A DNA stretch of 64,000 nucleotides from positions 320,912,001-320,976,000 of the forward strand of contig CM097882.1 in assembly GCA_044892505.1 (NCBI GenBank), in the 5' to 3' direction. A program made the position numbers and the translations under genes. The DNA comes from Schmidtea nova. Taxonomy: Eukaryota. This document shows positions 1-43,747 of this stretch, one piece after another. Each line of letters opens with the position of its first letter. The first letter of the stretch is position 1. The notes beneath the pieces were generated by a model that saw nothing but the letters and a program-made list of their open reading frames with translations, did not search any database and had not been told where the DNA came from.

Positions 1-1799
1 TCAAGTTTTAAATAAACCATCATGTAATCGTACAGTGATGTACATGAGGTTTCTTGCCAAATTTTATGAGCCGAAGCATACTCGACAGCAGTTATATCTT
101 TCCATTTAGGTGGTAAACACAAGGTAGATTTTAAAACTTCTAAAGAAGTGGCAGCGTCGTATGGAAATATGCCCTTGGCAGTCACTATAGTGCCGCGAAA
201 TTCAGAGTTTGTTAAAGGTAAAGATGAAAGGGTTTTTACCGCATTGTTCAAGGACTCACTCACAAATTGGTAAGAATCTATAAATTTTACTGTGAGGCTA
301 TCTATGTAAGCGAAAAGGCTTAAAAACTTTTCGCTGGTCAAGGGAATACAACTTATATTCCACGTGTTGTATTTTGAAAGGCCGTATTTTAAGATATGGT
401 GCAAATCGTAGCCCTTCAAGTTGTAAAAGATAACGGGCAAAGAGTGTCTTATTTGCCGGGATTTGTTGCACTCTGAGCAGGCTGCTCCAATATAAAGACC
501 GGTGAAATGGTCGTGATCTCTAACAGGTGCCACTAAAAGCTTTTTACATAAATAGCAATTAGTGCTATTATTAAATTCGAGTTGTTGGGTCGCAGTGATG
601 GTCATGCGCTTTTTATAATTTTTATAGTTATAGGGTGTTACTATATACCGACTGATTGACTCAATTTCATTTAGGAATTGGTCAACACAGTCTAACCCTA
701 CAAAAGATCTGTATATTCTGACCCCAGTAAAGTTGTTTATCAGAAGAAGACCTGCAGCAATAGGAATATGTTTTTGATGATGAAGAATATCTTTAGGTAA
801 TATTGCTTCGAAATCAGCATATATTACGAAAGGAGGAGTTACTGTTTTCTTCCAATCAGTAAACTCTAAAAATTTATTTTTGGGTAATGTGTAGAGTGTG
901 GTACCCAACTGATTTTTTGTGCAAAGACCCTTATGACGATTAAAGGCTTCGTCGTTCCTAAAGCCATTCAAGCAACGAGGGCACCATTGGCTGCAAATCC
1001 TAACTGGGGTGATGGTACTATTTCGGCAATTTAAAAAACGATTCAGGTCGGTAATCGCTAGATAATGAAAATTATCTTTATTTTCCAAGAGAAGCAAATT
1101 TATTGGAATTGCCCCGACTACTTTACTGCGATATACTATGTCGATAAAAGGATGTTTAAGGACGACATTATCATCATTATCGCTATCACTTATATCAATT
1201 TGGGCCTTTTCGTCATATGTAAGGACATTAATGCTGTAGCCGGGGTTTTGCCTCTCGAATTTCTTTATGTTTACTAATTTCATGGGCATGTCATTCGGGT
1301 CAAAAGTCAGTTGGGAAAGATCGTAAGAAGTAACCCTATGTCTGTATTGGCGTTCAATACTATCATATTTAACTATTGCTAAAAAGCTATATAAAAAGCA
1401 ATAAGTGTCGCTATTGTTGACATTAACTAAACAACTTAAATTTTTTAATGTATTAGGAGTTTCGATATAACTGCTGCCGCTCAACCTAGTAATCTCGGAA
1501 AATTTAGTCACTAAAAAACTAATATATTCTATTTTGGAGATTGTCCAATTACTCCCCTTTTCGTTAATCTGGACAATCTTTTCATTTAAACTAGTGATAC
1601 CTTCCTCAATAAAGGTATCACTCCACTCTCTGGCAGAATTTGAGATGACAAAAGATTGTAATTGATCATCTTTCTCAAATTCTACCTTGAGACAAAATTG
1701 TATTTTAGCTGATTTTAATTTAATAATATAAGATTTTAATTTATCTATCAATATATCTGGTACAGAGACCGTTTTTAATAATAAATTAGAAACATCCAT
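1..1799 (-). CDS. polB: Protein-primed family B DNA polymerase, N-terminal ~600 aa (runs off window start, so absent from the ORF track)
   Basis: Manual translation from ATG at 1799 gives GSSYIETP, NVNNSDTYCFLYS, WCPRCL, Exo I VIYADFE, an endonuclease-VII-like DHDHFTG..AACSECN, Exo II FYNLKGYD and LYDYMMVYLKLD at the window edge. Codon phase at 1799 and at 59 agrees. Confidence 0.93.
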   Translation of the reverse strand, partial: MDVSNLLLKTVSVPDILIDKLKSYIIKLKSAKIQFCLKVEFEKDDQLQSFVISNSAREWSDTFIEEGITSLNEKIVQINEKGSNWTISKIEYISFLVTKFSEITRLSGSSYIETPNTLKNLSCLVNVNNSDTYCFLYSFLAIVKYDSIERQYRHRVTSYDLSQLTFDPNDMPMKLVNIKKFERQNPGYSINVLTYDEKAQIDISDSDNDDNVVLKHPFIDIVYRSKVVGAIPINLLLLENKDNFHYLAITDLNRFLNCRNSTITPVRICSQWCPRCLNGFRNDEAFNRHKGLCTKNQLGTTLYTLPKNKFLEFTDWKKTVTPPFVIYADFEAILPKDILHHQKHIPIAAGLLLINNFTGVRIYRSFVGLDCVDQFLNEIESISRYIVTPYNYKNYKKRMTITATQQLEFNNSTNCYLCKKLLVAPVRDHDHFTGLYIGAACSECNKSRQIRHSLPVIFYNLKGYDLHHILKYGLSKYNTWNISCIPLTSEKFLSLFAYIDSLTVKFIDSYQFVSESLNNAVKTLSSLPLTNSEFRGTIVTAKGIFPYDAATSLEVLKSTLCLPPKWKDITAVEYASAHKIWQETSCTSLYDYMMVYLKL

Positions 1800-1859
1800 T
1801 TTTATAATAAAATGGGTATCGTTCAAGTCGGAAGTAGCTTCAACAATACCCATACCAAT

Positions 1860-2272
1860 TTAATTATTATTATTATTTATAATATTAACATAATCGTCAA
1901 ATTCATCATCATTGACGATTATGTCATCGGCAATGGCAGATATAATATCGATATTCGTACTTTTATTATAAATAAGATCATCTTCATCANNNNNNNNNNN
2001 NNNNNNNNNNNNNNNNNNNNNNNNNNNNNNNNNNNNNNNNNNNNNNNNNNNNNNNNNNNNNNNNNNNNNNNNNNNNNNNNNNNNNNNNNNNNNNNNNNNN
2101 NNNNNNNNNNNNNNNNNNNNNNNNNNNNNNNNNNNNNNNNNNNNNNNNNNNNNNNNNNNNNNNNNNNNNNNNNNNNNNNNGATGTCGATTATGATCAGTT
2201 TTTTAGGAACTGAATCCATTAATGTTGTATTTTTACGTTTATTTAAATTAGGTGTATTATTTAAATTTTGTA

Positions 2273-2315
<43 letters not shown>

Positions 2316-2480
2316 TAGATTATTTCGATTATTTTGTATATTATTATTATTATTATTTTGTAGATTATTATTATTTTGTAAATTATTATTATTATTTTGA
2401 TTATTTGTATTATTATTATTATTATTATTTTGTAGATTATTATTTTGTAGATTATTATTATTTAGAGTATTTTGATTAAG

Positions 2481-2522
<42 letters not shown>

Positions 2523-2819
2523 AATATTAATATTAATATTATTATTATTATTATTAGTGATATAATTAGCATATATGTTATTGAAAAGACATTTTTTCGA
2601 AGGCATGAATTGGGAAAGGTGAGTCCTATGCGAAAGAAAAAAATCTTTATAAGAAGTCGTTGAAATAATTTTACATTTTGAGCAGAGGAGGTGGGTGACA
2701 CCATTATATTTATAGGTATAGTACTTTTCCATAATGACATGGCAGTCATTATGGAAACGACTATTACAAAAATTGGTATATGTTAAACCTGAATATATGG
2801 AAAAAAAATTTAAATACAA
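1860..2819 (-). CDS. Asn-rich Polinton accessory ORF with N-terminal Cys/His cluster (spans an N gap)
   Basis: ORF track 319 aa. CxxC...HxxH-like residues precede a poly-Asn tract. Co-oriented with and directly upstream of polB. Frame across the gap is unverified. Confidence 0.5.
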
Positions 2820-2909
2820 TTTAAATGAAATGGTTAAATAATAATTATAAATTGTTTAAAAATAATATCCTCATTAATTTTTCATCAATATTCATCTTAT
2901 TAATATATT

Positions 2910-3172: not shown

Positions 3173-3672
3173 ATATAAAAATAATATAAAATTCAATATA
3201 AAAATAATAAAAAATTCAATATAAAATTAATATAAAAATACTTCAATATAAAACATTTTTCATTATATCGTTAATTATTCATAAAAATAAATTCTTTATC
3301 ATTTCATATTATTATTATTATTGTTCATCATTATTTTTTCATATTATTCTTTGTCATAATAATTCATCTTCTTCATTTCATCATAACAAATTCTGCATTT
3401 CATATAATTATTTCTTCATAATATTCTTCGTCATAATAATTCATCTTCATTTCATTATAACGTCATAACAAATTCAACATAATAATTTCATTATTTTTAA
3501 AAGTTATTATTATATTAAATAATATTAAAAGATTTAATTAAAAATAATAAAAATATTATTATTATTATTATATAAATAAATAAGAATAATAAATTACATT
3601 TTTTTGAGTTTTTAAAACTCTGTCCATTCAATTTCATGGCATAATCATTATTACTCGGGACATCATTCATCA

Positions 3673-3958
3673 TCATATTCGGGACATCATTCGTTGCATC
3701 GATATCAACAGCATGGAAATTGTTATTATCATTTCTACAAATTTAATAATAAAGAAAATGAAAATTAAATATTATTAATTTTACCAATAAATCGATTTTC
3801 TTTTCCGATTCCATTTGACGATCCCGCCATATTGTTCGATAAATTAACAACTAGAAATAACAAACAGAATATAAATATAATATAATAAAAAAAATAATAA
3901 TTTTACCTTTTAGACCTCCGGCGATCCTTGTTGGTATATTTAAATTTAAATTTTGCAT
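3673..3958 (-). CDS. Putative small spliced Polinton gene (exons 3958-3907, 3850-3785, 3734-3673)
   Basis: Two AT-rich GT..AG segments (3851-3906, 56 nt; 3735-3784, 50 nt) flank GC-richer exons below a CCAAT/TATA promoter. Splicing gives a ~60 aa peptide MQNLNLNIPTRIAGGLK...MMSRI. Exon 3 frame is uncertain. Confidence 0.4.
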
Positions 3959-4240: not shown

Positions 4241-4338
4241 ATTAAAATAATAATATTTAATATTAATAATAATAAAAATAATAATATTTTATAAAAATAA
4301 TAATAAAAAGAAAAAATAATAAAAAAATAAAATAACAT

Positions 4339-4740
4339 TTATTGTTTTAAATAATCTACAACAGCAGACAAGCACCCTTTATAGGCACACATACAATGGT
4401 CTTTATAGGGACATGAAATGTTTTCAGGAACATATTCAACTTTTTTAAAATTATATTTAATTAATCTTAATTTGGGGAAATACTTCTTCAAAACATGCAT
4501 CTTTTCATTATCTGTTACATAGAAAATAGCTCCTTTATCTGTAATATCATCCATTATACATTTTGGGCAAAAATAATCTTGTCCTTCAAACGATTCTATA
4601 CGATCAGGCCAGAAAGATAAATCACTGTATATATATTACTGGGGTGTGAAGATATTATTGACATTCATAATACATAATTCCTTAATTGTTGTTCCACCCA
4701 TTTCATTATATCCATAAAAATCGATAAAATAACAAGACAT
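4339..4740 (-). pseudogene. Conserved Polinton ORF, possible RNase H/DEDD-nuclease-like fold, with in-frame TAA at 4636-4638
   Basis: ATG at 4740 is in frame with the 4339..4554 ORF: FIDFYGY...IKELCI, then FYVTDNEK..L and C...H.MCA. This resembles the pattern I recall for a common Polinton accessory protein; the fold is inferred. Confidence 0.5.
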
Positions 4741-4773
4741 TTTTTTCAAATAAAATTTATTAAAATAAATTGT

Positions 4774-5151
4774 TTATAACATTGATTTCAACTATGCAAG
4801 GCAATGTTCACCACAAGTGATTGTTAAGGGATGCTGATATCTAATTCTATTATACACAATAGGTTTACCGATAGTTTGAAGTTTTCGAACAAGTAAATTA
4901 GGATAATAATATCCAAAGGGATCAAATACATGTATTCGATCTGGTTTCACGTAAACTTCAATCCAATGTTCACCGCCCAACGTAGATGTCTAAGTATTTA
5001 CAAAAAAGGCTTGATTCATTTTCAAATAAGGTATTTTATCCAGAGGAAATACTCCAATAAATTGATTTCCCAATAGTTCTTTACCTTGATGTAATACCTG
5101 AATAGAACTAATTAAAAATAAATAATTAATCAATTAAAATACTTACTCCAT
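4774..5151 (-). pseudogene. Adenain-like cysteine protease with 39-nt intron (5108-5146) and in-frame TAG stops (4990-4992, 4792-4794)
   Basis: Spliced translation MDSIQV...FIGVFPLDKIP...FVNT*TSTLGGEHW...FDPFG...YQHPLTITCGEHCLA. His/Asp/Cys triad and oxyanion Gln are present. Donor is GTAAGT. Confidence 0.88.
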
Positions 5152-5224
5152 GATGATAATAATAATAATAACTTTGGTCATTTATACTGTTTCAGAGCTC
5201 AAACCAATAATGTTTAAGCAGAGC

Positions 5225-6445
5225 TCAAACCAATATTGTTCGATTGGCCGTAATTTGAACTTCATTTTCAAAAACTCCATACATAATTACATGAACCGGT
5301 TCATCAATAGGTTTTGCAAACTTTATATCGAGTCGTAAATTTCCGTTTTGTGGGATTTGGCTTTGATTCAAATCAAAATCGGGAGCGAGAACAAATGTAA
5401 AGAATGGATATTTACTTTTAAATTCATCCAGACTTATACCGCAATTCAAGTTTTTATCGAAATATCCTAGATTTCGGACAAGACTTTGCATATATGTGGC
5501 ACTAAAATTATCATTTTCAAAATCTTGAGTATAAGTTTCTCTAAAATCGGTATTTTTCGATAACGATAATGAAGTCACATTGAAATGTTTGAATGTAGAT
5601 GCAGATTCAGCATATGATCCATTATATTGATTTTCAGTTTGAAAAGCCACAAGAATGAAATTAGGCATTCTTCTATCTCCAAATATTTGCTCCTTGTAAA
5701 ATGACGATGCGCCTTTACCGATTGCAAACGATACGATTTCTTTGGATTTTAATGGATAAATTGCATGTTTACTATTTAAACCAATTTGTTGACCGGCCAA
5801 AACTGAAGATTCACATCGAACTCTTCGAACCAATAATTTAGCGTCTACTAATTGGATTATTGGTTTCCCAGCTGCAGATTTCAATGATAATGAAGATTCA
5901 GATCTCTTCAATCTAACATGTACATTAACTCCGGGAAGTAAGTATTTTGGTTGATCCATAAAATCGAGTTGTAATGATGAACACATGTTAAAAAGTTTAG
6001 ATCCCTTGATCCACTTTTTCCTATCGTCAGATGAACCATATCCCATTGGAGTAAGACATGTTTCTTTTGTATCGCTAGTATAATTTAAAACAGTTTCGAT
6101 TATGGCCTTGTGTGCATATGTATTGTTTCCACCCTCAATTTTTATATTATTAAATCCAAGAATCGCATCTTTGAAAAGAGTATGAAACAGGTAATTATTA
6201 GGCACAACATCACTCGCATCAACTAATTTATTTTTATCTTTATCTAGAACCTTGACAGTAACGGATAATAAAGTATCGTTCAAATCCAAATATTCGGTTG
6301 CCGATCCATTAATGTAAAATTCAACATCATTTCTACTATCTGTAATAGAATTCATTGGAAAAACATCTTCAAACACCCCATATTCAATAACTGCTTGAGG
6401 TGATGGTCGATCAAAAAGACATAATTCAGATTTACCGCAAATCAT
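5225..6445 (-). CDS. Major capsid protein (double jelly-roll, Polinton PY/hexon-like), intact 406 aa
   Basis: KSELCLF..P.Q..IE.G, VEFYING...YLDLNDT, LDFMDQPKYLLPGV, and C-terminal FDL...GNLRLDIKF...Y match animal Maverick MCPs. Confidence 0.9.
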   Translation of the reverse strand: MICGKSELCLFDRPSPQAVIEYGVFEDVFPMNSITDSRNDVEFYINGSATEYLDLNDTLLSVTVKVLDKDKNKLVDASDVVPNNYLFHTLFKDAILGFNNIKIEGGNNTYAHKAIIETVLNYTSDTKETCLTPMGYGSSDDRKKWIKGSKLFNMCSSLQLDFMDQPKYLLPGVNVHVRLKRSESSLSLKSAAGKPIIQLVDAKLLVRRVRCESSVLAGQQIGLNSKHAIYPLKSKEIVSFAIGKGASSFYKEQIFGDRRMPNFILVAFQTENQYNGSYAESASTFKHFNVTSLSLSKNTDFRETYTQDFENDNFSATYMQSLVRNLGYFDKNLNCGISLDEFKSKYPFFTFVLAPDFDLNQSQIPQNGNLRLDIKFAKPIDEPVHVIMYGVFENEVQITANRTILV

Positions 6446-6807
6446 TCTTCAAATATGGTTCCATGACCTTTCATTCGTTTGTTTATACGTTTTCTAATCT
6501 TTTTACGTTTTGGTCCTACCGGTTCTGGTTCCGGTTCATTTTTGGAAAACATATTTGAAATTGACGGTATCGCCTTGGATACAGCCTCCATAGCATTCGT
6601 TTTCAATGTAGGCAAAATTTTCTGATCTTTCATTATAACGTCTTTAGCAGTTTTCATTCCAAAACTACCCAGTCGCTTAAGTAGTGGAAGTGCAAATCTT
6701 CCAATAGTTTTCAACCAACCTGATCCATACTGTTTACCGACAAAATACGGTAATTCGCCACCAGTTTGACTATTACTGTACAATGAAATTATATCGGGAT
6801 TACTCAT
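6442..6807 (-). CDS. Putative virion core protein (pVII-like) with adenain-type GG/GxG sites
   Basis: SQTGG, QYGSG followed by amphipathic WLKTIGRFALPLLKRLG, basic KRKKIRKR and terminal MKGHG. Lies between penton and MCP. Confidence 0.75.
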   Translation of the reverse strand: MSNPDIISLYSNSQTGGELPYFVGKQYGSGWLKTIGRFALPLLKRLGSFGMKTAKDVIMKDQKILPTLKTNAMEAVSKAIPSISNMFSKNEPEPEPVGPKRKKIRKRINKRMKGHGTIFEE

Positions 6808-7826
6808 GATGTTTTCGAAAATGTAGAGTCAAATGAGTTTTTGAATTTTTTGGAAAGTTTATTAAATTACCTCTATCATCTCGGATATTTATTTCTATAT
6901 TGTTTATACAGGATGTTGAAACATATAAATACATTGGATTTTCAACTTGTATTTGAACAACTTCATCCTGTTCATATTTTTCAATCCATACAGATTTCAA
7001 CATGGGAACTAATGAATCACCAACAATTATAGGATTTACTATATTACTGTAAATGAACATTTGCTGATGAAATTTAATTATTTTCGGTTTATATATTCCA
7101 ACAGTGAAGCTTCCATCTTGAGCATATGTTGCTTTCGATAATCCCAATGTTTTTACAAGATTATTGTCAAAAGTTATTTCGCTAACATCTGCATTCAAAC
7201 TGAATTTGAAGTAACTATCATCTACCAATTCCAGCGATTTAAAAATACTTGCACAATTTAGAATAAAATATGATTGCATTTCATCCAGTTTCGATATGTA
7301 TAAATTATCGGCAAATGTATGTATAAATGCACTATCATCCTTGTACTCCATCTTTATTCTAATTTTTTCCGTTAATGGACCATCTATGCCATATGCCGGT
7401 AACGGTATCTTGTATGTATCTGTAGGACTTACAATACTCTGTTTCGTTAATCCCATTCGTTTTGCCATTGCCAAAGTATCAAAAGTTATAGTGAAGGGAA
7501 AATTATCACAGGTAAAATAAATAGAATGTCAATCGCTACTTATTGTAGCAATATCATCGGCAGGATTAGATATATCAACTTCACAAAATTGATTGTTGAT
7601 AATCAAATTTTTATATTTTGTATGTATAGTTTTCTTTTTGTACCGAATTTCTGATTTACTGTAAAATGGAAATGGATTATACACAAATGTAAAGTCTAAG
7701 AGAGCGACTTCCCAAATCCCGTCCAAATACATCGGATTTTACGAGATTAACCATGAAATTACTGGAAGTATTATCTCGGTGTATATCTGAACAACTGTTG
7801 CTAGGTAGAATCATATAAAAATTCAT
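6800..7826 (-). pseudogene. Minor capsid protein (penton, Polinton PZ) with +1 indel at ~7737-7740 and TGA at 7529-7531
   Basis: Starts MNFYMILPSNS...NTSSNF and continues NPMYLDGIWEVAL. C-terminal MFIYSNIVNPIIVGDSLVPML...NNIEINIRDDRG...LHFR is typical of Polinton pentons. Confidence 0.85.
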
Positions 7827-8866
7827 TTTACTAGGTTTTTTGATGATATCCATGATGGTTCTTTATATCCATGCCACTTTACATAGTATTGTTTATCCTT
7901 ACCCACCATTTTAGATTTCAGGATTTTTTGAATTCTAAATATTGTCGGTGGAGGAATAACTTGTAATTCTTGTTCGTAGAATTTCCCGCTGATTATATTG
8001 TTATCAGAGTCACAAATAGTATACATGACAGGATTCTGCACTGTGTTGACTTTCGATATTTGATATACCTCATCACTCCAATTATTATCAAAATTTTTAA
8101 TGAATGGCGATGCACTAATTTTGCTAATTCGAACATGATCACCAATTTTATATTTCGGTTTCTTTACTTTCACTTCACTCACAATATTTTCAGTATCAGC
8201 TACTTCTGCCGGTTTCCTGCCATTTATACCCCGATGAGCACTATGATTATAACTGTGAATCAATTGAGGTAAAACATTAATCCAGGTTTTATTGCCTTTA
8301 AAAACAAAGTATTTTTTCAATCGATCACGCAAAGTTCGATTAAATCTCTCGACATGAGCGGCTTTGAATTGTGAGAATACCGAATAATGATTTATTCCCT
8401 TGATAACTTCCTTGACTTTACTGTTGTAAAATTCCTTTCCTAAAAAATATTAAATTTATAAATTTAAATTAAAATTTACCCAAATCGGTTTGTAAATTAG
8501 TTGGCCGATCCTTTTCATCATTGTCTTGATAGCGATTGCCATGTCATTAGCAGATTCAGATTTTACTCCAATTGCTCGAGCAAATCTACTGTAAACATCA
8601 ATACATGTTAAAATATACTTGTACCCCTTGTTAATAGCAGAATACGGAATCATTTCCATCAAGTCCATTTGCCACAAATCATTGATTCTATATGTTTTAT
8701 ATGCTCGAGTTGGAAACCGTTTCAACATCGGTTTGTTTAGACTGTATGCAAGTTGCCTCGATAACCAACTTTGTGTCTGTTGTTTCGACTTCTGTGATTT
8801 TTTCCTTAGCTTTTCGACTCCACCGAAACCGGCGTCGTCTTTTGGGTTCGTCCAGATCTTCTCCAT
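7823..8866 (-). CDS. Retroviral-like integrase with C-terminal chromodomain; 40-nt intron 8440-8479; 1-nt deletion in A-run 8512-8515
   Basis: N-terminal NPKDDAGFGGVEKL. Catalytic D (WQMDL), D (QTDLG, joined to KEF only after splicing) and E (HVERFNRTL). Chromodomain IQKILK...YYVKWHGY...SW. Confidence 0.92.
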
Positions 8867-8918
8867 TACAACAAGAAGATTTAAAGTTTAAATTTAAATT
8901 AGGTAATGATTGACCCAT
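8697..8918 (-). CDS. Putative 73-aa small protein overlapping the integrase start
   Basis: ATG lies 3 nt after the stop of the upstream ORF. MG start, CC pair and KRRRRFRWSRK basic patch. Confidence 0.35.
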   Translation of the reverse strand: MGQSLPNLNLNFKSSCCNGEDLDEPKRRRRFRWSRKAKEKITEVETTDTKLVIEATCIQSKQTDVETVSNSSI

Positions 8919-8921
8919 TGT

Positions 8922-9461
8922 TTATGACCTTTGTCCCAATAAACCAGCACCTCCCAATAATGATAAAGCTAGTGGTAATAAAGCGGCAATAAATCCTCCT
9001 TGTTGTTTATATATTATTTTGCGCATAAGTTTTCGATTTTTTGTTTTTACTAGCGACAACAATGGTTTCTTATGCTTGTTCAAAACACGTCGATTAGATG
9101 GACTTAGATGCATTTTACCTCGTACGACTTTAATTAAAATAGCGAGTAAATCATCGATATCGTAATTAGGAAACGATTGAAGAATACCCATTCTTCTAGC
9201 GGATGGGGCTTTAAGCAATGCATTAAAAAACGGAAAACTCCGATGATGTATTTGTTTAGCATTGGATTTCAAATTAATTGGAATTTGATTTTGTTTGGGA
9301 AAATTATCCATAATTAGCTTTTTCGATGGCGTATAACTTGTTTTTAAAACTGATTTTGAAACGGATTTCTTTGACAATTTCTTTCTTCGACCTGCTTTCT
9401 TACCTATTTTCATTGATTTTCGAGCATTTATCAATCGTTCAAACTTTACTCGAGATTTCAT
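8922..9461 (-). CDS. Highly basic putative core/membrane-lytic precursor protein
   Basis: Lys/Arg-rich; ends KQQGG-FIAALLPLALSLLGG, a protease-type site followed by an amphipathic helix, as commonly seen in Polintons. Confidence 0.75.
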   Translation of the reverse strand: MKSRVKFERLINARKSMKIGKKAGRRKKLSKKSVSKSVLKTSYTPSKKLIMDNFPKQNQIPINLKSNAKQIHHRSFPFFNALLKAPSARRMGILQSFPNYDIDDLLAILIKVVRGKMHLSPSNRRVLNKHKKPLLSLVKTKNRKLMRKIIYKQQGGFIAALLPLALSLLGGAGLLGQRS

Positions 9462-9487
9462 TAAGATTATTATTACTGTAAATCAAT

Positions 9488-10111
9488 TTAACTTTGTTTA
9501 TAAACCATGGCTCCTTCCTTGTTAAAAATATCAGTTCTAACTCTTAAATCATCACTGCATTGTTGAGTAAAATCCAGGAAAATATATCCATGAGGAGATT
9601 TTGTAGCATCTTGAAAGGCCTCCATTAAAAAGTTACGATTTGAAGGATAAGCTTGTCTTGCCAGAAAATCAATAACTGTTGCATCTCTAGGATTTTTAAA
9701 CACAACAAGATATTGAACATTTAAATTACGGGTTCGATGACTACCGCCCTGATGAAATAAATTCTGAGTTATAAAAATAACAGTAACACCTTTATGTCTA
9801 CTGATTTTCGTAAATAAGTTATTGAAATCCTTTTCTTTATTTGCTTCTTGATACAAGTCGTCAATGATAATCACATCACCTTGTTTTAATCTAGATGACC
9901 AGTTTTGATCGAAACCTTTTATGATTGTCATTTTTATTTTACAAAACTGATCTTGAGTCATTCCGCTTTCGTCGTCAGCACCCCTATGCCAATAAATATT
10001 ATTAAATTTTGACTTGAATAATTTTGATTGCAATAATTTACAAACAAATAAAGTTTTTCCACTCCCGCTCGGACCAACAATTTGAAACACTGCATCATTT
10101 CTTAATTCCAT
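9488..10111 (-). CDS. Genome-packaging ATPase (A32/FtsK-HerA family)
   Basis: Walker A GPSGSGKT, Walker B VIIIDD, SRH and ITQN motifs; intact 207 aa. Confidence 0.93.
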   Translation of the reverse strand: MELRNDAVFQIVGPSGSGKTLFVCKLLQSKLFKSKFNNIYWHRGADDESGMTQDQFCKIKMTIIKGFDQNWSSRLKQGDVIIIDDLYQEANKEKDFNNLFTKISRHKGVTVIFITQNLFHQGGSHRTRNLNVQYLVVFKNPRDATVIDFLARQAYPSNRNFLMEAFQDATKSPHGYIFLDFTQQCSDDLRVRTDIFNKEGAMVYKQS

Positions 10112-10204
10112 ATTTAAAAATTATATTTTCTTAATATTATTGTTTATATTTGTTTTAAATACTAGTTCTCAAAGTATTTATTTCATTTAAAAATATTTTC
10201 AGTA

Positions 10205-10672
10205 ATGATTAGAAACATTAATTACAAGGGTAAGACAGATGTATCACACATGAAATTTCCAAATGGAAAACTCCAGCAAATTGTAGATCGAAGTGGAAAA
10301 TACCCAATAATATACTTTAAAACAGGAAGATATAGAATAATGGGATGCAGGGAATTTATTAGTGACGAACAAGTTGAGTTTTACGATTTAACAATACAAT
10401 CGATAACTGTAACTGCGGATTTAGGATTTATTTGTAATTTGAATGAATTATCGAAATTAATACCGTGTGTTTACGAGCCAGAATTATTTCCAGCTTTGAG
10501 ATATATCAAATATAATCCCATGTGTGTAAATATATTTGCAAGTGGGAAATTAGTCATATTAGGATTAAAAAACAAAGACTATTCAACTATAGTTGATGAT
10601 ATTATTTACGATATAAAATCAATTATAGAAGATAAAGCCTTTGTTGATTTCATACTAACATGTGACTCATGA
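10205..10672 (+). CDS. TATA-binding-protein-like protein (one clear and one degenerate TBP repeat), 155 aa
   Basis: IQSITVTADLGFICNLNEL...YEPELFPALRY...NIFASGKLVILG aligns with TBP repeat NMVGSCDV.F.I.LE.L...YEPELFPGLIY...LIFVSGKVVLTG. The first half IRNINYKG...IIYFKTGRYRIMG is a divergent repeat. Confidence 0.85.
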   Translation: MIRNINYKGKTDVSHMKFPNGKLQQIVDRSGKYPIIYFKTGRYRIMGCREFISDEQVEFYDLTIQSITVTADLGFICNLNELSKLIPCVYEPELFPALRYIKYNPMCVNIFASGKLVILGLKNKDYSTIVDDIIYDIKSIIEDKAFVDFILTCDS

Positions 10673-10847: not shown

Positions 10848-11471
10848 ATGTCGCTAACCCAAACTTTAATTAAAAGCCGTAAGGATTTTAATTATTTATT
10901 TTTCATATTTTATATTATTATTATTTTAGAAAAGTTAATGAACGTGATCTACAGGAAGCTGGAGGAACTTTTCCCGAATCTGATGCCGGCTCTCGTCTAC
11001 ACGGCTCCGGAGATGTTCCCGTACAAGATAATGGTCTTGACGGGAATTGACATCAATCAGATCGTGCTGGACCACATGACGGACCAGAATACCGATTTGC
11101 CAGTGGTAGCCGAGCACATTCTCTGTGCATACCAATGTGGGAGCTGCGTCGAACGCATTCGACAATTCAACATTTGGGTTTTGCGAAACTCACTGAAATT
11201 ATTCGACATCCAGCAAATGGATAAAATCGATGAGGAGGAAGAAGAGCAAATCAAGGAAATATGGCCCAACTCTACTCCGGAGCCGATTGATGCCGATGAT
11301 AATGATGATCAAACAACAGAATTGGAAGCACCAACTCTAGATGGTCCATATCCATCTGAACCGGCTCAATCATCTGATTGTACGGAATCACCACAATCGC
11401 CGGATTGTGCCGAATGCCATCGAAAGGCTGATGGCGTTGAAGAAGAAGAAAAAGAAGAAGAAGAACAATAA
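10848..11471 (+). CDS. Polinton accessory protein with acidic C-terminal half; probable in-frame 51-nt intron 10879-10929
   Basis: ORF 207 aa. GTAAGG...TTTTAG segment is AT-rich and in frame. The 10940-11170 segment is unusually GC-rich. Contains CxxxCxxC and an acidic tail. Confidence 0.7.
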   Translation: MSLTQTLIKSRKDFNYLFFIFYIIIILEKLMNVIYRKLEELFPNLMPALVYTAPEMFPYKIMVLTGIDINQIVLDHMTDQNTDLPVVAEHILCAYQCGSCVERIRQFNIWVLRNSLKLFDIQQMDKIDEEEEEQIKEIWPNSTPEPIDADDNDDQTTELEAPTLDGPYPSEPAQSSDCTESPQSPDCAECHRKADGVEEEEKEEEEQ

Positions 11472-12492: not shown

Positions 12493-13071
12493 ATGAAATT
12501 AAATATAGTTATTTTATTATTATGTATTCACAATACCGAAGGAGAACAATCTTTGGAAGATTGTCAATCATCCCATCCGTTTCGAAAACAAGATAGTACT
12601 TGCGCGAGTTATAATGATATATGTCTTTACTCAAACATTGAATGCAGTCAAATAAAATTACAATGTAATCAATGTCCTTCAAAAAATAATGTGATTAATA
12701 ATGATATTGAAAAAATGATTAATAAAATAATGATGAAAATAGTTGAACGATTAAAATGTATCAATCAAACTTTTGTTAAAAAAGAATATGAAGTCAGATA
12801 CCAAAATCAAACAGTTGAAAATGAAAAAACAGCCATTGTATTACATTATATAAGTTTATTTATATTAATAATTATAATGATATTATCGGCATCCATACGA
12901 TTGGAGAAGATATCAAATATTCCAAAGAATAACATTCCGAAAAATAATATTCCAACTAATAACATTACAATGAATAATATTCCTATGAATAATATTCCGA
13001 GTAATAATTTAGATGTAAATAATTTTGAAACGAAATTTTGTACACGCACACAACAATATATTTATAAATAA
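12493..13071 (+). CDS. Predicted type I membrane protein
   Basis: Signal-peptide-like MKLNIVILLLCIHNTEG, six-Cys ectodomain, hydrophobic AIVLHYISLFILIIIMILSASI and a cytoplasmic NNIP pentapeptide repeat. Confidence 0.7.
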   Translation: MKLNIVILLLCIHNTEGEQSLEDCQSSHPFRKQDSTCASYNDICLYSNIECSQIKLQCNQCPSKNNVINNDIEKMINKIMMKIVERLKCINQTFVKKEYEVRYQNQTVENEKTAIVLHYISLFILIIIMILSASIRLEKISNIPKNNIPKNNIPTNNITMNNIPMNNIPSNNLDVNNFETKFCTRTQQYIYK

Positions 13072-13089
13072 ATTTTATTTTGGCTTTGT

Positions 13090-13628
13090 ATTTTTAATGT
13101 CTTTGTTTATGTTGCACATGTGTTGCAAAGTGTTGCATGTGTATTGCAATGTCTTTGTTCATGTTGCATACGTGTTGCAATGTCTTTGTTCATGTTGCAC
13201 GCGTGTTGCAAAGTCCTTGTTCATGTTGCAATGTCTTTGTTTAGTTTGCACGCGTGTTGCAAAGTTTTCGAGGGCTCTAATTTGTGTTAAAAAAATTTGT
13301 GTTAAAAAAATTTGTGTTAAAAAAATTTGTGTTAAAAAAAAAAAATTTTGAAAAAAAATTTTGACGCAAAAAAAATTTGAAAAAAATTTTTGGCGCGAAA
13401 AAAAAAATTTGAAAAAAATTTTTGGCGCGAAAAAAAAAATTTATAAAAAATTTTTGGCGCGAAAAAAAATTAATAAAAAAAAAAGTATGACTCATTGATG
13501 ACTCATCGATGACTCATCAAAAAAAATTTTTTTTACCCCCCCCCGGGGGAGGGGGGTCTTTGTTTTTTTTTTCCGCCCACGCAATGAGTCATAATGTCTT
13601 TGTTCCCTGCTCCACACATCTTCCTACT
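13090..13628. repeat. Polinton subterminal/terminal (likely TIR) region with tandem repeats and TF-site arrays
   Basis: ~30-bp TGTTGCA/ATGTCTTTGT repeats (13095-13260), 4x15-bp repeat (13281-13340), 3 E2F sites, 4 AP-1 sites, GC box, terminal CTACT. Confidence 0.85.
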
Positions 13629-25200: not shown

Positions 25201-28200
25201 ATTTAAAGTTGTTTCTGCAGTTAACCCTCTGACCGAGTATCTCGCGATTTACGCGTGCAGCATCTACTGGTTTCATTATACGCATCCCGCGATTTGGACG
25301 TAATTGCATTTATTTGTGTTTTCTCACGTTGTTATTCCGCGATTTCCCCGTTCAAGCTGTGTTTCTGTGCTGATAATTTTATGCATCACGATAATTTTAC
25401 CATTTACAAACAAAAAACATACATTTTTAAAATCAAATTTGAAAAAAAACGCGGTCAGAGTAAATAAAACAAAAAAATAATTAGGGCGAGTACCCTACTC
25501 TATTATTATTATTATCTATNNNNNNNNNNNNNNNNNNNNNNNNNNNNNNNNNNNNNNNNNNNNNNNNNNNNNNNNNNNNNNNNNNNNNNNNNNNNNNNNN
25601 NNNNNNNNNNNNNNNNNNNNNNNNNNNNNNNNNNNNNNNNNNNNNNNNNNNNNNNNNNNNNNNNNNNNNNNNNNNNNNNNNNNNNNNNNNNNNNNNNNNN
25701 NNNNNNNNNNNNNNNNNNNNNNNNNNNNNNNNNNNNNNNNNNNNNNNNNNNNNNNNNNNNNNNNNNNNNNNGACTATAGATCAAAATTTTTTTATAAACA
25801 ATAACACAATATTTCGGCACAACCTTTATCAAATGTGTATTTCAATCTTTATATTAACTTAATCCTAAATAGTATCCTTAATTATTATTTTAATATTTTA
25901 TAATGATTTTATTGGATGAAAAAAATTTATTTTTATTTTTTTGTGCGAATTGAATGTTGATAAACGGTTTTTATTTTTTTATGTAAAAAGTCTCGGAAGT
26001 TAATCTTTGTAATGAATTTTTGAATCCCTCTTGTAGAATCTGGCATTTTATTTCTTCTATAGATGGAATTGTTTTATGTACTTTCTCCCAGTGTTCGTAA
26101 TAATTACTGGTTTTGTTTTTAGTGTGTTCATTAAGTCGGGTGCGAAAAGTTCTATGTGTTTCTCCTATGTAAGTAGCGTCACATTTTTGACAAGAAAAAT
26201 AACAGGAAAAAGAATAGCTTAAGCTTAGCATTTCAGCTTGCTATAAAAAGCTAAATGAATTGACTAGTTTTCCTTGTGCTCCTCTTACTTGTGAAGATAA
26301 TACTTGTTGCCAGAATTTATCCAAAAATCTCGATATTCGCAAGCATAAAAAATTAGAAACGCTACTTTCAACAAATTCAAACAACACTAAAGACTCTAAC
26401 TCACACTCAAATTCAATTCTTCCATTTACAAACAAATCTAATCACATTTTTTCCAAAACACAAGAAAATATCCTCGCTCTAGGACCATCTTTTGTTCCTC
26501 CACCTAACCAGAAAGATTTAGAAAAAGCCGAAGTCATCACTAACGCCTCTCTTATAAGCCTAAGAAGACAAATAGGTTACCATCTAAAACCAATTTCATC
26601 CACCAAATCTTCAAGTTTAGCTGAAAAGCACAATCATCTTCTGGATCCAAATCGTAGAACATATCCAAACATGCCTGTCTTTTCGACTGAACTTGAAGAA
26701 AAAATCAGCTTTTTAGTCAAAACTTTAGTCAAAGAACAAATTATCTTTCTTGAAAAATATTGCTCAACACAAAATTCTTTCACTTCAAACATAAAGAAAA
26801 TTAAGAATTCCAAAGACTTCACAATTCTTCCATCAGATAAAACCAATCGACTAATTGCCCTTGAAGAACATCTCTCGAACTATGAACCGATAAACAAAAT
26901 AATCTTACCTGCATCGACTCAGATTTTATACAATAAGAAACTGTCAACACTTGCAAATAAACAAATCAACCTTAAAAATCAAAGATTTACTTTTAAAATG
27001 CAACTGTAGTGAGCCCTTACCTAGTAATATGACTATGTTACCTAAAGACCACAAAATTCCTTTAAGAGGTAGACCTCTTGTATCCGCAGTTGACACTCCT
27101 TCCACAACACTTTCTAAAGTTCTTTCAGAAATCCTAAAAACACTTTTGTCTTTAGTTCCTTGTCATCTTAAAAACACAACTGAATTCGTCTCCGAAATTA
27201 CAAATACGTCTCTTCCATTAAACGCAGGACAACAGTACTTCTGGGGATCTCTTGATGTTTCCAATCTTTACGGATCTATTCCTCTTCACGGAGAGAATAA
27301 TATTTTAGATATCACAGCTTCTTTCTTTGAAACTCATAAAGCCAATACTGACCTCGCAGACTTAACTAAACAAGACTTTATGGAACTTCTAAAATTAGCA
27401 ATAAATTCAGATACTCTCATAATTAAAGAAAAACCATTCAAACAAATTCATGGATTAGCCATGGGTAATAACCTTTCTCCCATCTTAGCCATCTTCTACA
27501 TGAACTTTATAGAATCTAAGATCATATCTTTTTTGGGGACAAAATACTTTTCTGGAAACGATATATCGACGATATATCGACGACAAGAAACATTAGAAAA
27601 CTTCAAAATACGATTCCTCCAAAATGGATACCCTGAAGAATTTGTAAAGAAATACTTCCTTAACGAACCATAACACAATAAACGCAACAATAGGAAACGC
27701 CAGAAACACAATAACAATAACAAACACAAAACATATCTAAGATTACCTTTCCTAAATGACACTTCAGCCAACAAAATCACCAACATTTTTAATCAAACAG
27801 ATTTGCCTATCCACATCCATCCAACGTTCATAAACTCCGCACCGTTAAAATCACAACTCCGAAAGCCACCAATTTCCAACATCTCCAAACATAAATGTCT
27901 TTGCCGTTCCACAACCCGATGCTTTTGCTTTTCCAAAAATATAGTATATAAACTTTCTTGTCAAAAATGTGACGCTACTTACATAGGAGAAACACATAGA
28001 ACTTTTCACACCCAACTTAATGAACACACTAAAAACAAAACCAGTAATTATTACGAACACTGGGAGAAAGTACATAAAACAACTCCATCTATAGAAAAAA
28101 CAAAATGCCAGATTTTACAAGAGGGATTCAAAAATTCATTACAAAGATTAGCTTCCGAGACTTTTTACATAAAAAATACAAACCGTCCATCAACATTCAA

Positions 28201-31200
28201 TTCGCATAAAAAATTAAAATAATTTTTTTTCATCCAATAAAATCATTATAAAAAATTAAAATAATAATTAAGGTTACTATTTAGGATTAAGTTAATATAA
28301 CGATTGAAATACACACTTGATAAAGGCTGTGCCGAAATATTGTGTTATTGTTTATAAAAAAAATTTTGATCTATAGTCATCATTATGAGAATTATTGATA
28401 ATAATAATAAAAAAATATCAAAGGTGAAANNNNNNNNNNNNNNNNNNNNNNNNNNNNNNNNNNNNNNNNNNNNNNNNNNNNNNNNNNNNNNNNNNNNNNN
28501 NNNNNNNNNNNNNNNNNNNNNNNNNNNNNNNNNNNNNNNNNNNNNNNNNNNNNNNNNNNNNNNNNNNNNNNNNNNNNNNNNNNNNNNNNNNNNNNNNNNN
28601 NNNNNNNNNNNNNNNNNNNNNNNNNNNNNNNNNNNNNNNNNNNNNNNNNNNNNNNNNNNNNNNNNNNNNNNNNNNNNNNNNNNNNNNNNNNNNNNNNNNN
28701 NNNNNNNNNNNNNNNNNNNNNNNNTCCAAAGTGAATTCTAGATATTATTAGATTCTAATATTGATCTTTCAATAATTTTGTTACCAAATGTTTATGATAA
28801 TAAATACGCAAGTAAAAAGTAAAAGGTATTTTAGAATGTTTGGAATAATTAGGGCAAATTATTTTGGTATCTAATATTTTAAGATTTAAAATAAAATCAG
28901 TGTGTTATCTAGTAACATTCATGTTTTTCATGTTTTTCATTTTTGAATCAAATCTTTATTTATTTCTGTAACAGTTGAAGGCTTCAACAGCTTGTTGATC
29001 ATTTGGAAACTAGATTATGATATTAACACATTCAGCTGCAAGATGTCATAGTCTAATGGGCTGCAAACGCTGTCACTGTCCGCGAATGTATTGATAAATT
29101 TTGTTTCTAAATCATGGATATTAAATTGCCAAAAAAGTTTTAAGCTGCTGCATTGTCTTGATGAAAATTTTTTATCTTCCGTATAACAAGTCTTCACGAA
29201 TTTTTTCGACCAATTGATCCAACAGGCTTGTATTATATTCTGAGTAAATTATTTTACCTTTCTCCAAAGTAATCGATGAACAACATTTCTTAATCATCTC
29301 AAAAAACTGATGTCATAACCTTAGCTGCTGATGGAACCCCTTTCATCTTTTTAGTGCACTTGAACTCTAACCATTGTTCTGATTGTTCTTTTGTCGTTGG
29401 TGTGTAATAGTGGATTCAAGTTTCATCTATAGTTATAAATCGACGATTGAAAAAAAACAAAAATTTAAGAAATTTTAAGAAATTTTAGAATTAATTGATT
29501 TGCAATCAAACGATACAATGAAATAACTCTTTAAAAATGAAAACATAAACACATTTTATTCACTTTTGCCGGAACATACTTTCAGCAATATAAAAATTTT
29601 GCCAGGAAAATAATTTAAATGTTTGGATGCACATATACCTGCGAGCAAGCCTTTTCACGGATGAAATATATAAAATGACCTTTTGAAGAATTTTTTAAAA
29701 ATAAGCGTATCTAGTTTCAAAGCAAATATAAAGAATGTCAAGGAAAGATCAAACAATCAGGCACATTGTTCACGTTAATTTTATTTTTTTAAATAATAAT
29801 ATGTCTTAACTTTTTTGCGTAAATATTTTAAATAAACCATAATTTTTCAAAAATTATTTTATGTTTTTTTAATATAATATTATAGTAACATATAAAATAA
29901 TGAAAACTTTGATACGAATCACTGAACTCATGAAAAACTTTTGTGGCTCTCTTCTTAAAAAATTGGGGACCTCTGATATAAAACAATCATTTTAAATTTC
30001 CAAAAGAACCTCTACTAAACTTGCTTTTTTATTGTTGAAAATCAAATGAATATGATGTATCAACTTCTCGATCTTGTAAGTTNNNNNNNNNNNNNNNNNN
30101 NNNNNNNNNNNNNNNNNNNNNNNNNNNNNNNNNNNNNNNNNNNNNNNNNNNNNNNNNNNNNNNNNNNNNNNNNNNNNNNNNNNNNNNNNNNNNNNNNNNN
30201 NNNNNNNNNNNNNNNNNNNNNNNNNNNNNNNNNNNNNNNNNNNNNNNNNNNNNNNNNAAGATCATAAGTTGAATGACGTAGCGACAGATAGGAAACCTTT
30301 AATGGTGCAATAAACCACTAGACCTATTAATAGGATTATTAATCATTTAGTAGAAGCTTTGAGATAAAAATTCAAAAATTGTGTAAACTTTTTATTTGCT
30401 TTTTACTTTTTGAACTTAGAAATCTTTTTTTTGCACAAGTATTTAATATTCCTTAATTGATTTTATTTATTATGGTGAATAAGTCTTAAAAAAATTATTC
30501 ATAGAAGCATTGTCAGTTTAAAAAATATCTTTGCAAACTGGAATCAGAATAGTGCGATGTAATTCGATTCTAGTCGCGGGAAATGCTTAGAAAGATTTTG
30601 TTACTACTATGATATTTTGGTGTGCGGACGATTCATCCAAGGACGATTTATCCCTGGACGATTTATCGAGAGGACGATTCATCCAGGAGACGATTCATCC
30701 TCTGACGATTCATCCAGAGAATAAACNNNNNNNNNNNNNNNNNNNNNNNNNNNNNNNNNNNNNNNNNNNNNNNNNNNNNNNNNNNNNNNNNNNNNNNNNN
30801 NNNNNNNNNNNNNNNNNNNNNNNNNNNNNNNNNNNNNNNNNNNNNNNNNNNNNNNNNNNNNNNNNNNNNNNNNNNNNNNNNNNNNNNNNNNNNNNNNNNN
30901 NNNNNNNNNNNNNNNNNNNNNNNNNNNNNNNNNNNNNNNNNNNNNNNNNNNNNNNNNNNNNNNNNNNNNNNNNNNNNNNNNNNNNNNNNNNNNNNNNNNN
31001 NNNNNNNNNNNNNNNNNNNNNNNNNNNNNNNNNNNNNNNNNNNNNNNNNNNNNNNNNNNNNNNNNNNNNNNNNNNNNNNNNNNNNNNNNNNNNNNNNNNN
31101 NNNNNNNNNNNNNNNNNNNNNNNNNNNNNNNNNNNNNNNNNNNNNNNNNNNNNNNNNNNNNNNNNNNNNNNNNNNNNNNNNNNNNNNNNNNNNNNNNNNN

Positions 31201-40329: not shown

Positions 40330-42715
40330 CAGGTATAATGGACAAAAAATATGTATCAATATATTTATAATGCTTACTTACTAGTATAACCAGAAAAAAA
40401 ACTAGAAAATTGTGCCAGAAAGGAGTTGTAAAACAATGGAACAAAACGAGGTTGATTTGCAAACAGAGGTAAACAATTATTTAAAACAATTAAATGCAAT
40501 TACCATAAGGGAAAAAGGAAGTCTGTTTTCATTTTAGGAAAGACAAGCAACAAAAATTGTGGGTTTTCAAATGCTACAATTGAAAATTGTTTAGCTTCAA
40601 TTAGTGAAACTGAGCCATCAACATCCACTGCTAACTCAACTAATACTAGTAGTTTAATACACAAAACTGTAAAAGATAATTTACCATCCAGCTCTTGTGA
40701 ATCACCACGAGTCGCTATAGTTCAAAAGAAACTACAATCCGAGATTGAAGTACTGAATTGGTTTATATGAACGTCATAAGCGAGGTTTTCTATCTGATGC
40801 TCAGGAAAAAAAGATTTAAATGCCAAATAGAAACAAACAATTGATTTAGAGGCTCAGTTGAAAAGGAAAAAGGAGGAGCAGAAACGACCGCATAAGTACC
40901 TAAACGAGAGAAAATTAAAGTTTAACGCAATTATGGAAAAAACCCCGGAAATACGCCAAGCTTTGAAAATTAGAGAGCATGTCGGAAGACCGATAATTGA
41001 AGAAGACCAGCCGCAGCTACTACAAACTATTATAAATATAGCTATGCATGGATCTGCAGCCCATGAGCGGTGACAAAGTGACGTTTATCGTACTATCAGA
41101 ACACTTAATGAACTATGAATGGTATTAAAAAATGACGGCTTTAATATTAGTAGATTCGGGCTGTATCTTAGACTACTATCAAAACGGGGCTCATCTTTTG
41201 AAGGAAACCGCCATGTTAAAACCGTCCCAGTTAAGCTGATCAGGTCTCAAAATGATAAACATTCAAAATATATCGATGGTTCGTTTTGTCGATCAACAAT
41301 TAGCTGTTTAGAAGAATTATCGTCACTTCTAGGGCCTTCTGAAGTTTGCTTTGTAAGCTAAGATGACAAATCTCGGATACCATTAGGTCTTGCAGCAGCC
41401 AATAAACAAAGCCCTCTGTTAACCCTTTCTAAGGCAAAGGAAACTAAAAGTGATGTAAAACTCAAAGTTTATTAATAATAATTATATAGTTACAAACACA
41501 TCTATGGTTTCAAATACTATAAATTTGTCCTCTTGTGGCTCAATATATGTCAGCAGTTGTACCAAAAGTATAAATGATTACCGACAGCGTTACACTTAGA
41601 TATTTTTATTAGTTTAAAATGGTGTACAGTATATTGCCACCACCTTAGAAAGGGTTAATGCATGTAGAATACAGAATTCAATTGCCTGATCATGACTGGG
41701 TTGTAGCAACCCAACATAAACTTATCCCTTCAGTATACGCAGAAATTGAAATTTTATCCGATGGACTTCGTAAAGCTGAAAATGTAACTTATTCTGGACC
41801 AACATATATTGCTATACAATCAGGTAAACATTCAGCATCAACAGCTATGAGTCACGCGTTGGATTTTGAAAAGATATTAAATTTAGAGGAATTCAATACT
41901 ATTACTCGACACGGAAAAGATGGATTAGTAAAACCTGTTCTAGTTTTTACCGTTGATGGAGGGCCAGATGAAAACCCACGATATCAAAAAAAAACGATTA
42001 CAGTGGCGGTTCATCACTTTTTAAAGCATAATGCTGATGCAGTATTTATTGCCACCAGCGCATCAAGGCGCAGTGCATTCAACAGCGTTGAAAGAAGGAT
42101 GGCACCGCTTAGTAATGACTTAAGCGGACTAATATTACCTCATGATCATTATGGTGTCCATCTTAATGACAAAGGCGAAACAATTGAAAAAGAGTTGGAG
42201 AAGCAAAATTTTATTTTTTGCTGGCCAATGCATGGAAGGATGAGGACGAAAGTTAAATAATAAAGACAAACGTTCTATTTTGGATTGATTTTATAATATA
42301 TACTTGGATCCTGTGATTTTATTTATCATTAATTAAGTACTACGATTCTTTAACCCTTATGCTGGAATGAACGCATTTGAATTTTTAGTTTTAAGGATTA
42401 TCTAGAGTTAATTTTTTTTAAATGATAACAACGCTTATTTTATATTTTGTTATTTACTGTACAGTTTTTGGAAATAATATGAAATTTTTAGAGTTAATAT
42501 AATAAGTTACGAAAAAATATAAATATAAAATAAAGAAATTATTTATTTCTTCATTATACATCATGTTTATTATTTGTTTTCATTTGGTAATGGGGGTGTG
42601 TGCATTTGTGACATAATTTTTAATGGGGTATTTACAGTTTTGTGACGAGTCGTGACAAAGGGGGAGGTGGGTAAAATCATTCAAAATTAGCGTGACGTAG
42701 TTTATGGATGGCCTC
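40330..42715 (+). mobile_element. Zator-type DNA transposon, decayed transposase, right TIR intact
   Basis: S*DDKSRIPLG, LPDHDW, VDGGPDENPRY and NSVERRMAPLS form a DDE triad. TIR (GAGGCCATCCATAAACTACGTCACGC on minus) ends at 42715 next to TTA. Left end not found. Confidence 0.75.
41423..41654. mobile_element. piggyBac-type MITE inserted in the Zator transposase
   Basis: 12-bp perfect TIR CCCTTTCTAAGG and TTAA TSD. Removal restores ...SPLLMHVEY. Confidence 0.92.
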
Positions 42716-42718
42716 TTA

Positions 42719-43307
42719 AATCTTTGATAAATAAATTAAATACTTCAAGTCTATCACAGCCCAAACTGTAGGTTACGCATTGTAAAACTATCACACTGGG
42801 ATCGTAAAAGTAAATGACATCATTGATCACTGGCTTGAAAACTGAAAGATACGTTTCGTCATTTATTCCTTCTTTCAAAGGTACAATAACTGAATAGTGT
42901 TTACCAAAATATGCACCAATTTCATACATACCACCTGTTCCCGTGAAGAAAATGTTACCATATTTATGAAAAGAAACTTTCATAACACATTCAGTAAAGT
43001 AAAATGCTTCCTATATGCCATCACCATGACAGACATCAATATCAATGTAGAGAACTCTTTGATGCCTCTTTAATAATTCCAGAATAGCTATTACAATATC
43101 ATTCACATAGCAAAATCCACTTGCTTCCAATTTTATAGCGTGATGAAGTCCCCCTGACCAATTTATAGCTATATCAACAATTTTATTATTTAAAAATTTT
43201 GCAGCTTGCAAAGTAGCGCCAGTATATACAAAACAAAAATCAAAAACCCCAGGAAAGATCGGGTAATTTTCACCGGCATTGTAATACATGAATTTTTTAC
43301 ATGACAA
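42719..43307 (-). pseudogene. HDAC3: Class I histone deacetylase (HDAC3-like) pseudogene fragment
   Basis: [33 protein letters not shown] (Zn His lost), TAG stop, [28 protein letters not shown] (Zn Asp lost). No introns across ~200 codons. Confidence 0.88.
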
Positions 43308-43747
43308 ATTTCTTGAAAAGCAATAACCTTAATTAACAAAAATTTCGCTTTTTTAATTTTAATATTCTTTTTTTCTTTTCAATCATTTTTTACAAAGAAT
43401 TCATTTAACTGTTTGACATACCGAAGACAGTATTCAGTGAAAAGCATATAGAAAAAAAGCATATAGAGCATGTCTGGTAGTAGTAGAAGGTCCATGTTAT
43501 GCAGCCTCCGCACTAGGGTATCATAGCTTCATCCTAAGATATTTCTTGGTTTGGCTTATATATTAATTGAAATTATTTTGTGAAATAATCTACTACATGT
43601 CTAATTTTAAGTAGTCTATCTTATGAATTGTTTTCCAACGCATTATTATTGAAATGAAGCGATTGTAAAATTTCCTAAAATCGGTTCCGGCTCATAAGTT
43701 TTGAAAACATCGGAGTTTTTAAAAATGAATCAGTTGACCAATAATCT

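Follow-up and report, generated by a model that had tools for sequence, protein, structure and literature searches.

In vertebrates, intact Polinton/Maverick elements are described as being without introns, and the accessible text of that study indicates that only intronless elements were counted as intact (PMC8097293). In nematodes, the available part of the relevant account describes intronless core genes in Mavericks, with introns just in captured cargo genes (10.1101/2022.07.12.499685). A large protist survey assumes intron-free genes and, according to the sections we draw on, used a prokaryotic gene finder accordingly (PMC10120064), and introners have been reported inside dinoflagellate maverick-polinton-like proviruses in the accessible portion of a further study (PMC11957031). 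Surveys of Polintons and endogenous viruses that assume the absence of introns would score lineages like the one described below as dead and miss them. Our search of the literature, which lay outside subscription papers, Repbase and supplements (where a prior record is possible), found no published account of introns being maintained in the core genes of animal Polintons.

Here, we have analysed an element in the genome of Schmidtea nova whose integrase gene is interrupted by a short GT-AG segment. As far as the partial texts of the vertebrate and nematode sources go, it has in common with those Polintons/Mavericks a protein-primed B polymerase (pPolB), an rve integrase with a chromodomain, an A32 ATPase, a C5 protease and a capsid-like ORF, as well as long terminal inverted repeats and a 6-bp target duplication.

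A Decayed Polinton/Maverick Copy

The window, by which we mean the whole stretch of 64,000 nucleotides analysed, contains an element assigned to the Polinton/Maverick group on the basis of its gene content (Table 1). A retroviral-like DDE integrase is indicated by the Pfam rve match on exon 1, and an adenovirus-type cysteine protease by Peptidase_C5 (E 1.1e-4) on a family-B homologue that is 59% identical to a sibling's protease. The 407-codon ORF has no Pfam match; its Atlas score is 0.98 to clusters in which 15-30% of members carry PF21738 (DJR-like), with recognition below threshold. The gene remnant at 6800..7528 is presumably the minor capsid gene, judging from its position. No matching left terminus was found for the window copy. 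Among four siblings, two have long inverted repeats ending in AGTAG and a 6-bp target duplication (element lengths about 17.5 and 19 kb), one has repeats with ill-defined ends, and one has none within the stretch examined.

Table 1. Features of the element, in window coordinates.
Feature	Position	Strand	Basis
Protein-primed B polymerase ORF, 5' part, leaves window	1..1859	-	DNA_pol_B_2 E 1.8e-16 on neighbouring stretch L063
Candidate 50-nt intron, weak, same small gene as 3851..3906	3735..3784	-	3/5 aligned stretches GT-AG
Candidate 56-nt intron, weak, variable small gene upstream of polymerase	3851..3906	-	6/8 aligned stretches GT-AG
Putative 39-nt GT-AG intron, five coding bases past protease start	5108..5146	-	Sibling alignment
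Uninterrupted 407-codon ORF resembling a major capsid protein	5225..6448	-	Atlas look-alikes
Gene remnant, ~350 codons in siblings	6800..7528	-	No Pfam match
Integrase exon 2, open over 204 codons, with the catalytic Glu motif and a chromodomain at the C terminus	7823..8439	-	Chromo E 1.8e-5, just under cut-off
Putative 40-nt GT-AG intron, phase 1, Gly codon of integrase D-x-G	8440..8479	-	Conservation, homologue alignment
Integrase exon 1, with the rve core and the first two catalytic Asp residues; carries a frameshift here	8480..8866	-	Pfam rve E 3.7e-8
Copy-specific frameshift, approximate place, ~21 codons upstream of donor frame's end	8511..8516	-	Differs from 28/29 siblings
A32-like packaging ATPase, uninterrupted	9488..10120	-	Pox_A32 E 5.7e-7
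Putative 51-nt GT-AG intron in accessory ORF	10879..10929	+	19/19 aligned siblings GT-AG, lengths 49-52
Right terminal region; terminus AGTAG inward at about 13628	13000..13628	-	Sibling comparison

The window element is a decayed member of its family, and the biology of interest sits in the family. Its polymerase is frameshifted and is broken further on in L063, and its protease is broken as well, with stops in exon 2. The frame leading to the integrase donor has 21 open codons, compared with 136-137 in 28/30 best-matching loci, because of the frameshift listed in Table 1, and thus this copy would yield no integrase, spliced or unspliced; both integrase exons are open in 26/30 of the best-matching loci. 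The preliminary description of this DNA had overlooked the frameshift, so that its observation of the intron stands and its use of the window copy as a source of integrase does not.

Several other features of the window were noticed. A TATA-binding-protein-like ORF (PF00352, E 3.2e-13) lies in the element at 10166-10672 on the plus strand, the polymerase has an Endonuclease VII-like match, and the polymerase is preceded by an Asn-rich, Cys-containing frame (1860-2855, minus strand) in which an acceptor may lie near 2791; small upstream exons (3594-3958, minus strand) might splice into this frame. Five more segments, at 26218-28222 (+), 41649-42260 (+), 42702-43328 (-), 47058-47519 (+) and 50288-51168 (+), were judged by eye from their translations; they comprise remnants of DNA transposons, a decayed reverse-transcriptase element whose tail is GIY-YIG-like, and a histone-deacetylase-like fragment without introns.

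A Probable Short Intron at the Integrase Active Site

Read on the minus strand from 8479 to 8440, the segment in the integrase gene starts with GT, ends with AG and is 95% AT, versus 61% and 67% in the flanking exons; its coordinates and ends had been given correctly in the preliminary description. Being in phase 1, it breaks the Gly codon of Q-T-D-L-G after base one, two codons past the Asp. The Asp codon is intact within exon 1. The exon 2 frame continues with K-E-F, followed by a V-E-R-F-N motif and the chromodomain. An intronless homologue (P0009) matches 16 solved integrases, and in its alignment with a solved retroviral integrase this Asp is that of T-D-N-G and the Glu that of the V-E motif. 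We take these to be the second and third catalytic residues of integrase. The Asp codon thus belongs to exon 1 and the Glu to exon 2.

Removal of the segment restores colinearity with homologous proteins, since D-x-G-x-E-F is uninterrupted in 106/106 homologues aligned across the site (among the matches listed, 120 of 476), in agreement with the earlier claim that splicing would give a canonical rve core. Also as claimed, the unspliced window copy meets a stop; it lies three codons past the donor. The 5.9-kb core (4300-10200) contains no GT..AG stretch of 35-60 nt and 88% AT or more apart from the integrase and protease segments, the latter with two overlapping starts. Because the core scan yields just these two, and because GT..AG is present in 30/30 best siblings and in 60/60 genome matches, the integrase segment is not a chance occurrence.

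Conservation and Selection across the Family

To characterise the segment in the family, we used the first 60 consecutive genome flank matches, picked without requiring GT or AG. All 60 have GT-AG ends, with lengths of 40-45 nt that are spread over the three frames (48, 7 and 5 copies) and a composition of 92% AT, and both exons are open in 44. The unspliced frame is stopped in every copy, inside the segment in 56 and within 21 codons in the remaining four, and this lineage-wide pattern bears out the earlier proposal that integrase would depend on splicing. Among 946 pairs from the 44 copies, which are not independent, seven of eight bins have pN/pS values of 0.08-0.19, and the eighth (exon 1, the most distant 44 pairs) has a value of 0.44. 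At mid divergence the intron interior differs by 0.27 versus a pS of 0.27-0.34, and hence drifts like synonymous sites, whereas among near-identical exons it differs by 0.17 versus 0.05, an excess over the drift expectation that may reflect slippage in poly-T or recombination among subfamilies.

Donor sequences differ among copies, from GTAAGC to weak forms such as GTTATA. A branch-like YTRAY is present in 9/13 intron types, and no conserved interior motif apart from the ends and the AT-rich 3' tract was found. Synonymous difference beside the junction is 0.16 and 0.26, compared with 0.04-0.38 in other 10-codon blocks; the value for the last 10 codons of exon 1 (0.16 versus 0.22 elsewhere) falls inside the block-to-block range. 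Together, the invariant ends, the drifting interior, the lengths in mixed phases and the constraint on both flanking exons fit splicing, and fit neither a dead insertion nor a translational bypass; we infer that the segment is spliced out. Four sequence runs cover the element evenly, as DNA would; none of the 15 joints listed, of 136, coincides with the intron, which speaks neither for nor against splicing.

In host chaperonin genes, 10 putative introns of 44-54 nt and 76-89% AT were found by a search confined to 30-130 nt. The introns of the element are 37-56 nt long and that of the integrase lies at or slightly below the lower edge of the host range, the 40-nt intron of the window being shorter than all 10 host introns measured. 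The preliminary view of a host-type mini-intron in the integrase is upheld by its presence throughout the lineage, its invariant ends and a size close to that of host introns. Considering the 40-nt length and some weak donors, splicing may be inefficient. As a separate observation, the C-terminal third only of the chaperonin model has dozens of near-identical genome matches (e.g., L230-L246), some in tandem about 4.6-5.4 kb apart, which probably represent a captured fragment in a repeat.

Genome-Wide Distribution and Intronless Relatives

A genome search with the exact 12-nt flanks of the family returned 3,841 matches at 35-60 nt apart and none at 3-12 nt, and reversed-pattern controls returned none. 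Thus, no copy with the family flanks lacks the segment, which speaks against a copy-specific insertion, the outcome that the preliminary description had set against its own reading. GT and AG are at the expected places in 3,753 of about 3,841 (the spacer range being moved by 2 nt between the two counts), and this loss rate fits post-insertion decay at about 1.5% diversity. A degenerate pattern without the family flanks, into which GT and AG were built, found 6,675 further matches in diverged families. Altogether, there are approximately 10,400 intron-bearing integrase junctions in the genome versus 178 intronless ones, the intronless pattern being somewhat stricter and restricted to D-L-G junctions. 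On this evidence the integrase intron is regarded as a trait of the lineage. If many of these junctions belong to full-length elements of 17-19 kb, they would account for at least one tenth of the AT-rich, 1.25-Gb genome.

Integrase families without the intron also occur in this genome, with 115 scored matches besides the 178 motif matches, and among the matches listed their rows mostly belong to a separate family that is 71-74% identical in protein. Processed copies were considered for ten atypical intronless matches, five of which have a junction near that of the window family. These are 66-79% DNA-identical to intron-bearing families and are therefore separate families or old copies and not retrocopies, so no processed copy was found among the ten (taken from the 100 matches listed of 178). 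No polymerase ORF was seen in the one copy examined of the main intronless family. A search among viral contigs returned no relative.

A fold-back Polinton derivative of about 14 kb was also observed (G000:C3:14.186-14.200 Mb; L061:2808-9648 and L062:293-7131). Its two 6.8-kb arms are 99.8% alike, and each contains ATPase, intronless integrase, minor-capsid-like and capsid-like genes. A piece of the protease lies at the centre of the derivative, which has a 6-bp target duplication and in which no polymerase ORF was seen. Head-to-head pairs 7.0 kb apart occur many times across the genome, which suggests that the derivative moves as a unit.

Probable Origin of the Integrase and Protease Introns

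A midpoint-rooted tree of exon 2 proteins (39 rows, 212 columns) placed the 12 intron-bearing types in one clade with support of 99/96, nested among 27 intronless rows, four of which are from the same genome. Intron state changes a single time in 98% of bootstrap trees. The rows exclude decayed intronless copies with fewer than 100 open codons and most database homologues, and a quick tree of 87 rows agrees on a single intron-bearing clade. The survey of relatives at this codon, which the preliminary description had proposed, found no such intron outside that clade: besides the unbroken homologues mentioned above, which come from a protein collection that favours intronless genes, 54/78 metagenome loci span the site unbroken, and the other 24 stop short or are ambiguous. 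The integrase intron was thus likely gained once, as far as the tree and survey tell.

Intronless relatives frequently have AG/G or G/GT at this position, and the site therefore resembles a proto-splice site. The intron ends resemble the flanking exon ends at 2-5/6 and 3-5/7 bases, making an origin by tandem or target-site duplication or by repair-linked insertion plausible; the splice consensus alone would give such likeness of the ends.

The protease gene begins with a 5-base coding micro-exon, ATG-GA, which together with the intron occupies 5108-5151 (minus strand). This intron was compared in 20 sibling loci and five loci of other families, as were the other short introns. Of these siblings, 19/20 aligned at both ends, and all 19 have GT-AG. 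The position is also interrupted in L061, a family with an intronless integrase, and in metagenome loci L084 and L086, as well as, in decayed form, in L284 and L285; distant loci L092, L093, L110 and L118 have a protease start without an intron. From this distribution the protease intron is judged to predate that of the integrase, and because it is common to relatives with intronless integrases, the lineage would already have depended on splicing to make its virion protease by the time the integrase intron appeared.

The preliminary description had counted up to five short introns in the element. Besides that of the integrase, that at 5108 is well supported and that at 10879 is supported, with GT-AG in 19/19 aligned siblings each and the latter being stop-free in the window copy, and those at 3735 and 3851 are weak: several of their aligned stretches are probably at non-orthologous places, and a flank-anchored search in 15 close siblings, some of which may fall short of these positions, found the 3735 intron in none and the 3851 intron in one.

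Possible Functions of the Integrase Intron

A lineage-wide intron in the integrase is very probably real, if its constitutive, beneficial and regulated use, which overlap as readings, are taken together. Based on the observed sequence, its conservation, the single clade and the selection on the exons, we infer splicing, its constitutive use and the mode of gain, and consider it quite probable that the segment is an ordinary, constitutively removed spliceosomal intron, likely gained a single time in this Polinton/Maverick lineage and now present in about ten thousand copies. The element would rely on host Pol II for its transcription and on the host's major spliceosome for removal of the intron; if left unspliced, the RNA would end ahead of the catalytic Glu and the chromodomain. 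The GT and AG ends would stay fixed while the interior drifts because lineages losing either would lose their own integrase. The gain likely took place at a pre-existing G/GT or AG/G site in an element that was already splicing its protease, and such prior dependence on splicing would make it cheap, with no regulatory purpose needed.

The preliminary description had raised the possibility of a control point separating integration from particle production. That proposal is not supported, since the maturation protease has an intron of its own, and an older one, so that both arms would need splicing. A broader form, in which certain cells or piRNA control would leave the intron unspliced and so limit integrase while other viral proteins are made, can point to a retention product without the catalytic Glu in 60/60 copies, a very short intron with variable and sometimes weak donors, uninterrupted capsid and ATPase genes, and, in the available texts, the precedent of P-element IVS3 (PMC9762592) and the targeting of Polintons by piRNA in a planarian (PMC8532177). 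We nevertheless regard it as distinctly unlikely: the protease is intron-bearing too, intronless integrase families of the same genome also transpose, and neither a conserved interior motif beyond the ends and AT-rich 3' tract nor added synonymous constraint beside the junction was found. With donors variable and junction-flanking synonymous sites within the normal range, the sequence gives no sign of regulated retention, and constitutive use with no switch function appears most likely. It is rather unlikely that the intron benefits the element, by raising expression or by shielding its transcript against surveillance directed at intronless RNA, and so promoted the expansion of the lineage. 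The great excess of intron-bearing junctions and the retention of the intron through several radiations, with no loss seen, would agree with a benefit, as would the finding, in the accessible part of one report, that introns guard against HUSH silencing in human cells (PMC8770142). However, a single gain is a single comparison, the contrast is confounded by the main intronless family showing no polymerase ORF in the copy examined, and the search patterns were of unequal strictness; moreover, DNA elements do not pass through reverse transcription and so lack this route of intron loss, and therefore retention needs no benefit. The bolder idea that an active-site intron allowed the transcripts of this Polinton lineage to be taken for host RNA, or its integrase to be adjusted by cell type, and thereby drove one of the largest Polinton expansions, is improbable.

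Intronless integrase families in the same genome could in principle act as helpers, mobilising a family that a disabling insertion had made non-autonomous for integrase. This is very improbable, as purifying selection acts on both exons, also past the insertion, in families that differ by up to about 0.3 substitutions per residue, and the interior changes between an invariant GT and an invariant AG. The likeness of the first bases of the segment to the start of exon 2 might instead recall a translational bypass (frameshift, hop or read-through), which is scarcely credible given lengths in all three frames, stops in or just past the segment, and splice dinucleotides that alone are invariant. 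Maintained introns in the integrase and protease would mean that the element is transcribed in the nucleus by Pol II and relies on the spliceosome of its host. The locus would lend itself to work on intron gain, and on whether introns help mobile DNA escape surveillance, since it offers thousands of copies, sister families with and without the intron in a single genome, and two gains whose order (protease, then integrase) can be dated.

Comparison with Known Systems

The following comparisons draw on the accessible parts of the sources. In the Drosophila P element, as here, transposase needs one intron (IVS3) removed and retention gives a truncated product; retention of IVS3 has been shown to be regulated by tissue and piRNA, whereas for the present element such regulation would be hypothetical (PMC9762592). 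Ginger1 DNA transposons are similar in having a Gypsy-like DDE integrase gene with GT-AG introns in an active DNA element, and differ in being simple cut-and-paste elements without polymerase or capsid and with 1-4 introns (PMC2836005). The dinoflagellate proviruses also carry spliceosomal-type introns within Polinton-like elements (PMC11957031); theirs are mobile introner copies, mostly post-integration, whereas here one fixed, AT-rich intron of 40-45 nt is present in all copies of the lineage, a comparison that rests on matches all found via the integrase flanks. Finally, unlike the Polintons of vertebrates and nematodes as described in the available texts, this element carries maintained short GT-AG segments in both its integrase and its protease.
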